A stretch of DNA of 64,000 bases from Candidatus Spongiisociaceae bacterium (GTDB lineage Bacteria; Actinomycetota; Acidimicrobiia; Spongiisociales; Spongiisociaceae), in the NCBI GenBank assembly GCA_965219685.1, contig CBDCOH010000002.1:736001-800000 (forward strand), given 5' to 3'. Both the position numbers and the translations under genes were made by a program. Shown here piece after piece: positions 8,454 to 59,195 of the stretch. The notes beneath the pieces are model-generated. The model made no database searches. It saw only the letters and a program-made list of their open reading frames with translations, and was not told the origin of the DNA. Positions within the stretch are counted from its first letter, which is position 1. Every line of letters starts with the position of its first letter.

Positions 8454-8891
8454 ATGACCGTCAGGTTGAATAGAGCGGTGGGGGCCGGAATGGTTGCGTA
8501 CTCGGCTCTGTACGGGATCCAGGTGGTCTTCGGAATCCTCTACTCGGATGCTCTGCCGGCGTCCGATGTGTACGCGGTCATGAACTACATCTCGGCGGCG
8601 GGGATTCTTGTCTCGCTGGCCGTGGCCTGGTGCCGCAAGCGCGGATGTGGCCTTGGGCCCGCCGGTCCGGAACAGTATCTGGCGGTGCAAGCAGGTTTCT
8701 ATGTGGCCCTGGCTCTGGCAATCTGGTTCTTCACTCTCTGGTTGCGGCTGCTCACGCTCGACGACGGTGAGACCGTCCCGGACCCCGACACGGTTATCTG
8801 GTTCCTGGTATCTGCCCTGATCCCGATTGTCTTGGGTACCAACGGCGCCGTACTCTGGAAGTCCGGCAAGTTGGTGAGTCGTGAGTGGTGA
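8454..8891 (+). CDS. Hypothetical membrane protein (about 4 TM segments)
   Basis: Four hydrophobic stretches; GGGAG SD; stop codon lies inside a heptamer array. Confidence 0.65.
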   Translation: MTVRLNRAVGAGMVAYSALYGIQVVFGILYSDALPASDVYAVMNYISAAGILVSLAVAWCRKRGCGLGPAGPEQYLAVQAGFYVALALAIWFFTLWLRLLTLDDGETVPDPDTVIWFLVSALIPIVLGTNGAVLWKSGKLVSREW

Positions 8892-8904
8892 GTGGTGAGT
8901 GGTG
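8872..8904 (+). repeat. Heptamer array (TGGTGAG) x4.7
   Basis: TGGTGAG TCGTGAG TGGTGAG TGGTGAG TGGTG. Confidence 0.9.
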
Positions 8905-9040
8905 TCCAGATAGACCAAGTCGCTGAAGCAGGAGCCTACGAGGTTGCTATTCGGATGGTCCACCCATGCCTCTCTCGTGTCGTGTTGCCGGTGCAAACGT
9001 CCTGCTTGAAACTTCGGAAAAGGGTTGAGGCCCGCCCAAC

Positions 9041-9057
9041 GTAATTACAGTAATTAC
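9041..9057. promoter_or_regulatory. Putative antitoxin operator: tandem palindromes GTAATTAC-A-GTAATTAC
   Basis: Two self-complementary 8-mers just upstream of TATCAT and the TA operon. Confidence 0.6.
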
Positions 9058-57951: not shown

Positions 57952-57987
57952 CGGTACCCAACCTCCAACGGCGTAGCATGGAGTCCG

Positions 57988-59169
57988 ATGGCTTACGTAT
58001 TCGAACTGCCGGACATAGGCGAGGGCCTCACCGAGGCGGACATCATTCGTTGGCACGTTCCGGTGGGTGACAGTGTCGCGATGGACCAGATCCTGGTAGA
58101 GGTCGAGACCGCCAAGGCGGTGGTGGAGATCCCGTCGCCGGCCGCCGGGACGCTGCTACATCACGGCGCCGGCGAAGGTACGACGCTCACGGTCGGAGCG
58201 GTCCTAGCCGTCATCGGCGATGCAGACGAGTCTTGGCGGGGCCACGACCTCGGTACGGATCTCTCAGGTTCCGGCCAAGCGGGCGGAACCGCGGATCCGG
58301 GAGCCCAGAAGCGGGGGCGGCGTCGTTCGGCCGGGGGAGACCGCCCGCAGGCGTTGCCGGTGGTCCGGAGGCTGGCGCGCGAGCACGGCGTCGACTTGGG
58401 ATCCATCGCCGGGTCAGGTCCGGGAGGACGGATCACCAGGGACGATGTCATGGCGGCGGCAAGCCCGGAGCCTCCGCGTGAAACTGTAGGTGGCGAGCGG
58501 GTGCGGCTCTCGATGCTCCGCCGCACCATCGCAGAGCACATGAGTTCCTCCTGGCGGGAGATCCCTCACGTGACCATCTTCCAGGATGTCGACGCCACGC
58601 GTCTGCTGACCGCGCGCCGCGCACTCGCGGGGCGGCACGAGCGGCAGATACCGATGGAGGCCCTCGTCGTCAAGGCGCTCACGCCCGTGCTGGGTCGCTT
58701 CAGGGAGTTCAACGCCACCCTCGACGGTGACGAACTGATCCTCCACAGTTCCCTGGATGTCGGGATTGCGGTCGACACGGCCGACGGGTTGCTAGTGCCC
58801 ACAATCCCGAACGCCGGGGAGATGGGCTTACTGTTGCTGGCGGAGGCTATATCGGATCTGGGGACCCGAGGCAAGGCCCGGACCCTCGCAGCCCACGAAC
58901 TGACCGGTGCCACTTTCACTGTCTCCAACTTCGGGGCTCTGGGAGGGGGTAGGGGAACACCGATCATTCCGTTGGGGACCACCGCCATCCTCGCAGTGGG
59001 ACGAGCCGAGGACACCCCGGTGGTGAGGAACGGCAGCGTGTCGATCGCGCCGATGATGCCGCTGTCGCTCGCATTCGATCACCGTGTGATAGACGGCGGC
59101 GCTGGTCAGCGTTTCGTCGCCATGCTGGTGGAGAACCTCGAGGAGCCGGCTCTGTTCCTGGCCGATTGA
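57988..59169 (+). CDS. Dihydrolipoamide acyltransferase (E2 of a 2-oxo-acid dehydrogenase)
   Basis: LPDIGEG, lipoyl motif ETAKA, GSGPGGRI, DHRVIDG. Confidence 0.93.
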   Translation: MAYVFELPDIGEGLTEADIIRWHVPVGDSVAMDQILVEVETAKAVVEIPSPAAGTLLHHGAGEGTTLTVGAVLAVIGDADESWRGHDLGTDLSGSGQAGGTADPGAQKRGRRRSAGGDRPQALPVVRRLAREHGVDLGSIAGSGPGGRITRDDVMAAASPEPPRETVGGERVRLSMLRRTIAEHMSSSWREIPHVTIFQDVDATRLLTARRALAGRHERQIPMEALVVKALTPVLGRFREFNATLDGDELILHSSLDVGIAVDTADGLLVPTIPNAGEMGLLLLAEAISDLGTRGKARTLAAHELTGATFTVSNFGALGGGRGTPIIPLGTTAILAVGRAEDTPVVRNGSVSIAPMMPLSLAFDHRVIDGGAGQRFVAMLVENLEEPALFLAD

Positions 59170-59195
59170 TGGTGAATGGTGAATGGTGAATGGTG
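59170..59195 (+). repeat. Heptamer array (TGGTGAA)x3.7
   Basis: Starts at the first base after the E2 TGA stop. Confidence 0.92.

Follow-up and report, generated by a model that had tools for sequence, protein, structure and literature searches.

We have carried out an analysis of eight tandem arrays of the heptamer TGGTGAR (CACCAYT on the opposite strand) found in a 64,000-nucleotide stretch of the genome of Candidatus Spongiisociaceae bacterium (contig CBDCOH010000002.1, positions 736,001 to 800,000; hereafter the window). These arrays are a family of intergenic heptanucleotide simple-sequence repeats, kin to the short tandemly repeated repetitive (STRR) sequences of cyanobacteria and to the heptamers of Xanthomonas and Nostoc; the kind itself is known, and what is new here is the TGGTGAR unit family, the host group and a far wider range of carriers. 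The arrays obey one placement rule, in which the C-free, G-rich strand has its 5' end next to the closest open reading frame (ORF), whichever direction this ORF takes, and the rule is peculiar neither to this genome nor to the TGGTGAR unit. Placement and strand follow gene boundaries and not the direction of replication. The explanation that we favour, with a probability of roughly 0.55, is a composite one, in which the heptamers are made by slippage, strand-specific tolerance maintains their placement, and one-way boundaries arise as a by-product.

A sequence-only reading of the window had pointed to eight arrays, and all of them are recovered by Tandem Repeats Finder (TRF) over the 64 kb, with 3.9-44.9 copies and 82-100% matches. 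In agreement, a two-unit TGGTGAR pattern with at most one mismatch has 102 matches, every one within the eight arrays, against a mean of 0.02 in shuffled sequence. The surroundings are ordinary: the binned G+C content is 62-68%, a Pfam analysis of 47 window ORFs returns ordinary chromosomal genes, including the order dapB-dapA-RNase J-ftsK, and a scan of the window for tRNA and Rfam families gave no match. Long repeats are generally hard to assemble, and for the longest arrays the number of units may be imprecise; however, the source contig measures 4,390,481 nt and like arrays occur, among the matches listed, in more than 100 independent assemblies, complete chromosomes included, so that it is unlikely that the window arrays are assembly artefacts. 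Together with the match count far above the shuffled expectation and the strongly non-random placement described below, this makes chance microsatellites or artefacts an explanation of negligible weight. The arrays are given below with the TRF period-7 calls in brackets; stop codons are taken from the ORF list and the sequence.

8872..8904, plus strand: TGGTGAG array (TRF 8872-8904, 4.7 units) covering the six C-terminal codons (LVSREW) of ORF 8454-8891 together with its TGA stop (8889-8891), which falls in the third unit
11600..11695, minus strand: array of 13.4 units (TRF 11600-11693), its first unit TAGTGAG opening with the TAG stop (11693-11695) of the glutamine synthetase (GS)-like gene 11693-13057(-)
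13144..13278, minus strand: array of about 19 units (TRF 13144-13275, 18.9), 15 TGGTGAA and 4 TGGTGGA, in a divergent intergenic region
29268..29337, plus strand: array of 10 units (TRF 29270-29336, 9.6), its first unit TAGTGAG opening with the TAG stop (29268-29270) of the SDR gene 28512-29270
29346..29380, minus strand: array of 5 units (TRF 29346-29380, 5.0), its first unit supplying the last codon, Trp, and the TGA stop (29375-29377) of the Fpg/Nei gene 29375-30160(-)
34608..34751, plus strand: array of 20.6 units (TRF 34608-34751), its G-rich 5' end 39 nt from the lhr ATG 34568 (-)
55044..55361, minus strand: degenerate array of about 45 units (TRF 55046-55359, 44.9) with a 28-nt super-period, between RNase J and ftsK
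59170..59195, plus strand: TGGTGAA array of 3.9 units (TRF 59169-59195), directly 3' of the TGA stop (59167-59169) of the E2 acyltransferase gene
29262..29390, no strand: convergent inverted pair formed by the arrays at 29268 and 29346

All eight arrays are intergenic or overlap an ORF by no more than its seven final codons. As the sequence-only reading had noted, five of them start at or over a stop codon with TGGTGAR on the sense strand of that gene, and the three long ones at 13144, 34608 and 55044 stand as CACCAYT on the sense strand just upstream of the aminotransferase, lhr and ftsK starts, at distances that we measure as 15-50 nt; each array is therefore within 50 bp of a sense-strand stop (five arrays) or of an antisense-strand start (three arrays, 15-48 nt). 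The G-rich 5' end of the 13144 array is 15-19 nt from the ATG of a class-III aminotransferase (13294), and its 3' end is 86 nt from the start of the GS-like gene at 13057. This is the one array of eight in a divergent intergenic region, and it also reads TGGTGAA on the sense strand upstream of the GS-like gene, a correction to the description of long arrays as CACCAYT before genes. The 34608 array follows the BtpA stop (34850) at a distance of 98 nt, and the 55044 array occupies the interval from 13-15 nt past the stop of RNase J (55030) to 46-48 nt short of the ftsK ATG at 55408; in either case the two flanking genes have CACCAYT on their sense strand, these being BtpA and lhr for the former and RNase J and ftsK for the latter. 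The view that an array after a stop always reads TGGTGAR thus holds for those touching a stop and fails for these two, which follow BtpA and RNase J in the opposite sense. The far end of the 11600 array is 48 nt from the stop of a convergent SRPBCC gene, 11120-11551(+), and the 59170 array is 44 nt from the stop (59240) of a convergent GNAT gene. Overall, the 3' ends are 44-98 nt from their neighbours, except at RNase J (13-15 nt) and at the 8872 array, whose 3' neighbour is uncalled, and the nearer neighbour is on the 5' side for six of the seven arrays with both neighbours called, the 55044 array being the exception.

These distances depend on gene identities and start codons. Pfam upholds the GS-like, SDR, Nei, E2, Lhr, FtsK and aminotransferase assignments, with matches to Gln-synt_C, adh_short, Fpg/H2TH and 2-oxoacid_dh among the neighbours of the arrays, and the nearest named relatives of the Nei protein are from Acidimicrobiia, at about 47% identity. 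The 145-aa ORF 8454-8891, which had been called a membrane gene, does have four hydrophobic stretches but matches no Pfam family. The start codons were chosen by us: those of the aminotransferase and lhr fit a first Pfam match at residues 22 and 25, respectively, while in ftsK the first match begins at residue 129 and leaves the start at 55408 unconstrained. The strand of the arrays is evenly divided, four on each, although the GC skew is positive in 15 of 16 bins of the window, and therefore the polarity follows the genes.

A scan of species genomes for three exact TGGTGAR units returned at least 122 stretches. Among the matches listed, the carriers span more than a dozen phylum-level groups, which by record title comprise about 48 Bacteroidota, 18 Pseudomonadota, 15 Planctomycetota, 8 Acidobacteriota, 6 Cyanobacteria, 4 each of Verrucomicrobiota, Chloroflexota, Gemmatimonadota and the "delta" groups, 3 Campylobacterota and a few others. 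Cultivable carriers among them are Terrimonas ferruginea DSM 30193, Hymenobacter roseosalivarius DSM 11622 and Mesorhizobium sp. L-8-3. Actinomycetota do not figure among the matches listed, an absence to which no meaning attaches, the number of stretches being a lower bound. Period 7 accounts for 292 of the 538 TRF rows from the carrier loci and the window, and many heptamers stand beside TGGTGAR in these loci, some being one-base variants and many unrelated: the carriers are heptamer-rich genomes, and the repeats are not a TGGTGAR speciality. We have examined placement in 87 arrays from 80 loci with 2-kb flanks, where genes were called crudely, by taking the longest ORFs greedily, with a GC3 filter for loci above 55% G+C and with open-strand arrays masked; both neighbours were called for 76 arrays, of which 8 were dropped for an ORF running into a masked array and 68 kept. 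Taking the array in its TGGTGAR orientation, 22 have co-directional neighbours with the gene running into the array, 29 have co-directional neighbours in the opposite sense, 18 lie between convergent and 7 between divergent neighbours, and in 11 one neighbour is missing, so that divergent regions are depleted outside the window (7 of 76).

The rule observed in the window is reproduced. The nearer neighbour is on the 5' side in 51 of the 68 arrays and on the 3' side in 15, with 2 ties (p 1e-5), and the median distances are 23.5 nt to the 5' neighbour and 110 nt to the 3' neighbour. Of 44 stops on the sense side, 30 are found between -20 and +25 nt relative to the beginning of the array, whereas of 40 stops on the antisense side only 1 is within 25 nt of the array, after dropping the eight ORFs (Fisher p 7e-11); the polarity at stops claimed for the window thus recurs in other phyla. 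Of the 30 abutting ORFs, 24 have a Pfam match, and in several of them, such as GuaA (ending IEWE), RtcB and PNPOx, the match reaches the native C-terminus, the array beginning 0-18 nt past the native stop. All six inverted pairs among the matches listed from other genomes are convergent. The external arrays have a median of 4 units (28 nt), a value that may reflect the three-unit minimum of the scan, and stop tails and start-proximal arrays do not differ in length outside the window (median 4 units each, p 0.32), from which it follows that the association of long arrays with promoters, suggested from the window, is not general.

The rule appears to extend to other units. Among 56 arrays of other heptamers in the carrier loci, 25 adjoin another array and 14 inside ORFs were flagged out (the two sets may overlap); 16 were kept with both neighbours called, and 13 of these have unequal G and C. 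When oriented by G>C, these unrelated heptamers show the same placement, 11 versus 2, in a small sample (n=13) whose G-rich strand nearly always holds a stop triplet, G>C and stops being thus confounded. Composite heptamer tracts are frequent, as the 25 of 56 adjoining arrays indicate, and the window contains one such case at 34753, listed further on.

The internal structure of the arrays informs on how they grow. The unit is best written as (TGGTG-AR)n-TGGTG, four of the eight arrays terminating in a partial TGGTG. The 11600 array starts with TAGTGAG and continues with six TGGTGAG and then five TGGTGAA, the 13144 array has a block of four TGGTGGA followed by fifteen TGGTGAA, and the 29346 array is a strict alternation of TGGTGAA and TCGTGAA, with a 14-nt super-period. 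Because variants are private to each array and amplified in blocks, local gain and loss of units would have proceeded by slipped-strand mispairing or unequal exchange. The same features bear on the possibility of addition from a fixed template, of a telomerase or reverse transcriptase kind, or of mobile-element ends, which would agree with the prevalence of one unit family in the window and with the presence of the unit in distant phyla. However, a common template does not fit the private blocks (TGGTGGA x4 at 13144, the TCGTGAA alternation at 29346, the 28-nt super-period at 55046), the comparison of the flanks of the eight arrays found no shared flanks, target motif or target duplications, and the window encodes no reverse transcriptase or recombinase apart from a fragment of an IS4/5-type DDE transposase (1200-1892), which no array approaches closer than 7 kb. 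We thus regard this origin as highly improbable, and the templated addition of 7-mers put forward in the sequence-only reading is disfavoured by those private, block-amplified variants. A relative of the Nei protein, P0036 (79% identity over 61%), comes from a frameshifted ORF in which GGWWLVA is repeated some 2.5 times. In that organism a stop-free (TGGTGGC)n array thus appears to stand just after nei, and the same gene end would then bear an array of another unit.

The two strands have very different coding properties. On the G-rich strand each of the three frames contains stops in all eight arrays, and the C-rich strand is stop-free in seven; the earlier proposal that one strand is closed and the other open is hence correct except for the long degenerate array at 55044-55361, where CTGACCA variants create 4 stops on the C-rich strand. 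In its GAA form the G-rich strand also reads GGUGA followed by AUG, making seven-codon mini-ORFs. The longest ORFs of lhr (30171-34808) and ftsK (55369-57951) extend upstream through or up to the arrays, owing to the scarcity or lack of stops on the C-rich strand, and automated annotation might add spurious N-terminal extensions here. A search of Pfam-supported genes, restricted to the open strand, gave two arrays spanned by a domain match: L059 at about 632-676, in an adenine deaminase, and L033 at about 1994-2023, in the porphobilinogen deaminase HemC. Both are short in-gene arrays of the TGGTGAR family which translate as HHSPLTT-like inserts inside the domain match, and they may be in-frame insertions or phase-variable sites.

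It is conceivable that the tails are selected as fail-safe translation stops, with TGA in every frame, or as sites holding the ribosome through pairing of GGUGA with the 16S rRNA. TGA is the leakiest stop codon and is used by 29 of 41 window genes; five of the eight arrays touch a stop, all frames are closed within 3 units, and 7 of 30 external tails encode the ending ..GEW*. Nonetheless, three units would be enough and tails reach 13, three of the eight arrays lie away from stops, and, in respect to ribosome holding, about 48 of the 122 carrier stretches are from Bacteroidota among the matches listed, a group that makes little use of Shine-Dalgarno pairing. Moreover, by our reading the unit GGGAATC contains a stop triplet on neither strand, and still its arrays share the placement according to Rehm 2015 (PMC4692102). 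Selection for stops or for ribosome holding is thus very unlikely, and the all-frame stop tails that the sequence-only reading offered are ruled out as a general cause.

A distinct scenario results from considering the arrays as RNA. The rut sites of Rho-dependent terminators are C-rich, G-poor and unstructured, although natural ones are not tandem repeats. Transcribed in the CACCAYU sense, four arrays (96, 135, 144 and 318 nt) have 46-51% C and 0-5% G and a minimum free energy of 0 kcal/mol, determined over the full length of the first three and over the initial 145 nt of the longest; the composition of a rut site, with at least about 80 nt of C-rich, G-poor and unstructured RNA, is thus present in four of the eight, the others being 26-70 nt. 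Rho loading on the C-rich strand of the four long arrays remains plausible. As RNA, the inverted pair at 29262-29390 folds into one long hairpin of -67.7 kcal/mol (z -8.4); no U-tract follows it, so that it does not resemble an intrinsic terminator. Scans around six of the eight arrays gave no consensus promoter or intrinsic terminator at any of them. Weak -10-like hexamers are visible by eye before ATG 13294 and ATG 55408; they are below the threshold of the tool and we make no claim for them. A -35-like TTCACC supplied by the array was tried in register with these hexamers, did not fit and was dropped.

These properties raise the question of whether the arrays are kept as gene-boundary devices, acting as Rho-dependent terminators or insulators when read as CACCAYU and as hairpin terminators when paired; their spread would in that case be due to function and not to tolerance. 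Besides the C-rich, unfolded RNA of the four long arrays and the stable hairpin, such a role would be consistent with three long arrays standing downstream of stops in the C-rich sense (48 nt from SRPBCC, 98 nt from BtpA, 13-15 nt from RNase J) and with the lack of consensus intrinsic terminators near the six scanned arrays; in addition, Rehm 2015 (PMC4692102) describes transcripts starting and stopping at heptamer repeats above the level of control repeats. However, the arrays are mostly too small for this, the external median being 28 nt and four of the eight window arrays having 26-70 nt. Also, a terminator need not abut the next ORF, and for termination just before a promoter a place near the upstream stop would be better, the opposite of what is seen at lhr, and the 13144 array lies in a divergent region, without an upstream gene to terminate. 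A selected boundary function is therefore doubtful, though it deserves to be weighed.

In the composite reading, the rule would be maintained by what each strand tolerates rather than by a dedicated machine. Where an ORF runs into the array, the array begins at or over the stop and would close three frames; where the ORF runs away, it sits 15-50 nt upstream of the start, and the sense strand would be the G-free, stop-free CACCAYT. The G-rich strand would not be readable through, as it carries TGA every 7 nt and Shine-Dalgarno-like GGUGA with AUG/GUG mini-ORFs, and would persist only behind a stop, while the C-rich strand, open and free of structure, could persist in leaders and even inside genes. 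The longer arrays would then behave as one-way transcription boundaries by way of by-product: RNA made toward the anchoring ORF, with 46-55% C and 0-5% G and no structure, would be suited to Rho entry, RNA made away from it would be C-free and blind to Rho, and convergent pairs would yield a long RNA hairpin. With respect to the earlier interpretation, gene-boundary placement and its non-random character are thus retained, and two of the causes proposed for it, stop tails as a general cause and templated addition, are not.

A number of observations weigh against this composite explanation. Tolerance explains the orientation of the arrays, but not their tight 5' anchoring as compared with a 3' stand-off of about 100 nt, and slippage leaves unexplained both the dominance of one unit in the window (8 arrays versus 1 other) and its recurrence across phyla. 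The dimer scan of the window found no two-unit TGGTGAR proto-arrays. Anchoring at starts outside the window varies with the choice of start codon, being 19 versus 5 with the longest ORF, 14 versus 4 with the first ATG and 11 versus 8 with the second start. Stop supply is not the general cause of the placement, since the stop-less GGGAATC obeys the same rule. In respect to Rho, about 28 nt, the median of the external arrays, is too short for loading, and to our knowledge cyanobacteria have no Rho, yet cyanobacterial carriers were found; because most external arrays have about 28 nt and because of these carriers, the Rho component is not general.

The window has further heptamers and single units, which are relevant to how arrays might start.

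34753..34788, no strand: array of GTCCGTT x5.1 (TRF), a heptamer of unrelated sequence, which directly continues the 34608 array at its 3' end
16489..16506, minus strand: mini-array TAGTCGG x2.6, containing on the sense strand the TAG stop (16504-16506) of the PhyH gene
14635..14641, plus strand: single TGGTGAG unit, Trp plus the TGA stop of the aminotransferase
23740-23746: single TAGTGAG unit at the stop of a PD40/SLH gene, TAG followed by TGA

The PhyH gene faces an Asp-dehydrogenase-like gene across the convergent spacer 16424-16506, which also holds GTCTATA x2.3, 12 nt after one of the stops; at such copy numbers both this and the TAGTCGG mini-array could have arisen by chance. Similarly, the single units at 14635 and 23740 may be seeds or plain tandem stops, and with 41 genes such occurrences at stops are hints rather than statistics.

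The fact that one rule holds across units and more than a dozen phylum-level groups could also point to a directional process in which heptamers originate where translated regions end or begin and are lengthened away from them, perhaps in connection with the limits of ribosome cover on the transcript; we consider this improbable. Equally tentative and slightly less probable is its array-intrinsic version, in which a directional process, perhaps dependent on unknown machinery, seeds heptamers at ORF ends and lengthens them outwards, the polarity being mutational and not selective. Indeed, the TGGTGAR unit is present in many phyla, and single units lie exactly on two further window stop codons. 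Also, the 5' third of long arrays tends to be more degenerate than the 3' third (16 versus 7 of 28) and there is an excess of period-7 signal in the 3' flanks (0.11, p 4e-9) and none in the 5' flanks. The degeneracy trend is however non-significant (p 0.08-0.17), the asymmetry of the flanks is partly circular, most 5' flanks being coding, and no conserved flank or target motif was found. In agreement with the statement of the sequence-only reading that the window has no candidate enzyme, Pfam on the 47 ORFs revealed none. In favour of such a process is also that anchoring is independent of ORF orientation, both in the external arrays and in those of Rehm 2015 (PMC4692102).

Other features of the window were noted alongside. 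Two copies of the palindrome GTAATTAC, separated by a single base, stand at 9035-9062 in the spacer that follows the 8872 array and precedes a small ORF (9091-9345); the pair looks like an operator. Tandem repeats of 33 and 54 nt (3.6-5.7 copies) at 697-981 lie in or beside the Pfam-less ORF 445-909 and adjoin the transposase fragment at 1200-1892. A MoxR-like AAA_5 ATPase gene (46120-47127) stands between Pfam-less ORFs of 372 and 705 aa (region 45135-49237), and the segment at about 44400-45100 has no confident gene call.

Heptamer repeats have been known since their description in cyanobacteria, reportedly in 1990, and TGGTGAR extends a published placement rule to a high-GC genome and to many phyla. 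The interest of the family rests on this cross-phylum reach and on the contrast with GGGAATC, a natural pair of units with and without stop triplets that separates stop supply from strand composition. In practical terms, gene callers run ORFs through the open strand, as in lhr (to 34808), ftsK (from 55369) and the P0036 relative, where the repeat is read as protein; some proteins do end in array-coded residues (LVSREW*, ..GEW*), and heptamer arrays may break short-read assemblies. Were a directional process to operate, TGGTGAR would be its most widespread product, and heptamers would mark a mechanism and not tolerated debris of slippage.

We have compared the arrays with a number of known systems. 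REP/BIME elements are dispersed extragenic palindromes found at the 3' ends of genes and between convergent genes, and as with TGGTGAR they can give hairpins at mRNA 3' ends; however, each REP unit is in itself a palindrome and does not consist of tandem heptamers, whereas TGGTGAR hairpins would form from inverted array pairs only. The four long arrays resemble rut sites in offering at least about 80 nt of untranslated C-rich RNA downstream of a stop when read toward the anchoring ORF, while the length needed is lacking in half of the arrays of the window and in the majority of those outside it. Chi-like TGGTG, RNA polymerase pausing, pairing with tRNA CCA, and binding of HutP/TRAP-like or cold-shock proteins are possible resemblances that were considered and set aside. 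The STRR heptamers of cyanobacteria, reportedly described by Mazel in 1990, and the related long simple sequence repeats (LSSR) share with TGGTGAR the period of 7 and the dispersed, mostly intergenic location, and both have few unit families per genome. Three or more head-to-tail 7-bp copies in mostly intergenic positions are likewise what we observe. The 64 kb of the window hold 8 arrays of the same unit. The STRR units are, we presume, sequences other than TGGTGAR, and we know of no STRR description that includes polarity relative to stops; our search of the STRR literature gave no placement data, and no two-unit TGGTGAR string was found in the searchable literature.

A further comparison is with the TAACTGA repeats of Beggiatoaceae, Cyanobacteria and Bacteroidetes, for which MacGregor 2015 (PMC4679880) describes a patchy spread across phyla. 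They share with TGGTGAR the stop triplets in a heptamer tandem, the proximity to gene boundaries and the mixing with other heptamers in some genomes, but they mostly stand forward, a few nucleotides upstream of start codons, in 2-6 copies, while TGGTGAR arrays near starts are reversed, with the C-rich strand as the sense strand; indeed, all three start-proximal arrays of the window are in the reverse sense. According to the summary of Mrazek 2007 in the same source (PMC4679880), in most of the bacterial genomes surveyed no class of long simple repeats is commoner than the heptanucleotide one, Actinobacteria contribute three of the ten genomes with the highest content of 5-11-nt repeats, and polymerase slippage was suggested as the origin of such repeats.

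The closest parallel is provided by the GGGAATC arrays of two Xanthomonas genomes and the GGGGA(C/T)T arrays of Nostoc PCC 7120 (Rehm 2015, PMC4692102). According to that paper, these are intergenic, without leading/lagging bias, and "almost exclusively" nearer to the 5' ORF (28 versus 160 nt) in any ORF orientation, lying within 50 bp of a sense-strand stop, overlap included, or of an antisense-strand start. The same paper reports 70-75 convergent inverted pairs and few arrays between divergent ORFs, transcript starts and stops more frequent than at control repeats, and a modal number of 4 units, read as a sign of quadruplex formation for the G3 heptamers. With this geometry already published, TGGTGAR arrays are not the system without precedent that they might seem from the window: both are 7-bp intergenic tandems with a G-rich and a C-rich strand and a nearer 5'-side ORF (23.5 versus 110 nt here), and both have convergent pairs, rarity in divergent regions and no replication-strand bias. 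They differ in that TGGTGAR units hold GG runs only, which would allow at most a two-tetrad structure, so that the quadruplex proposed for G3 tracts does not apply, and in that TGGTGAR carries TGA and closes all frames, whereas GGGAATC is devoid of stop triplets. Finally, unlike the Xanthomonas and Nostoc repeats considered in that source, TGGTGAR is found in a high-GC host and has a much wider range of carriers.

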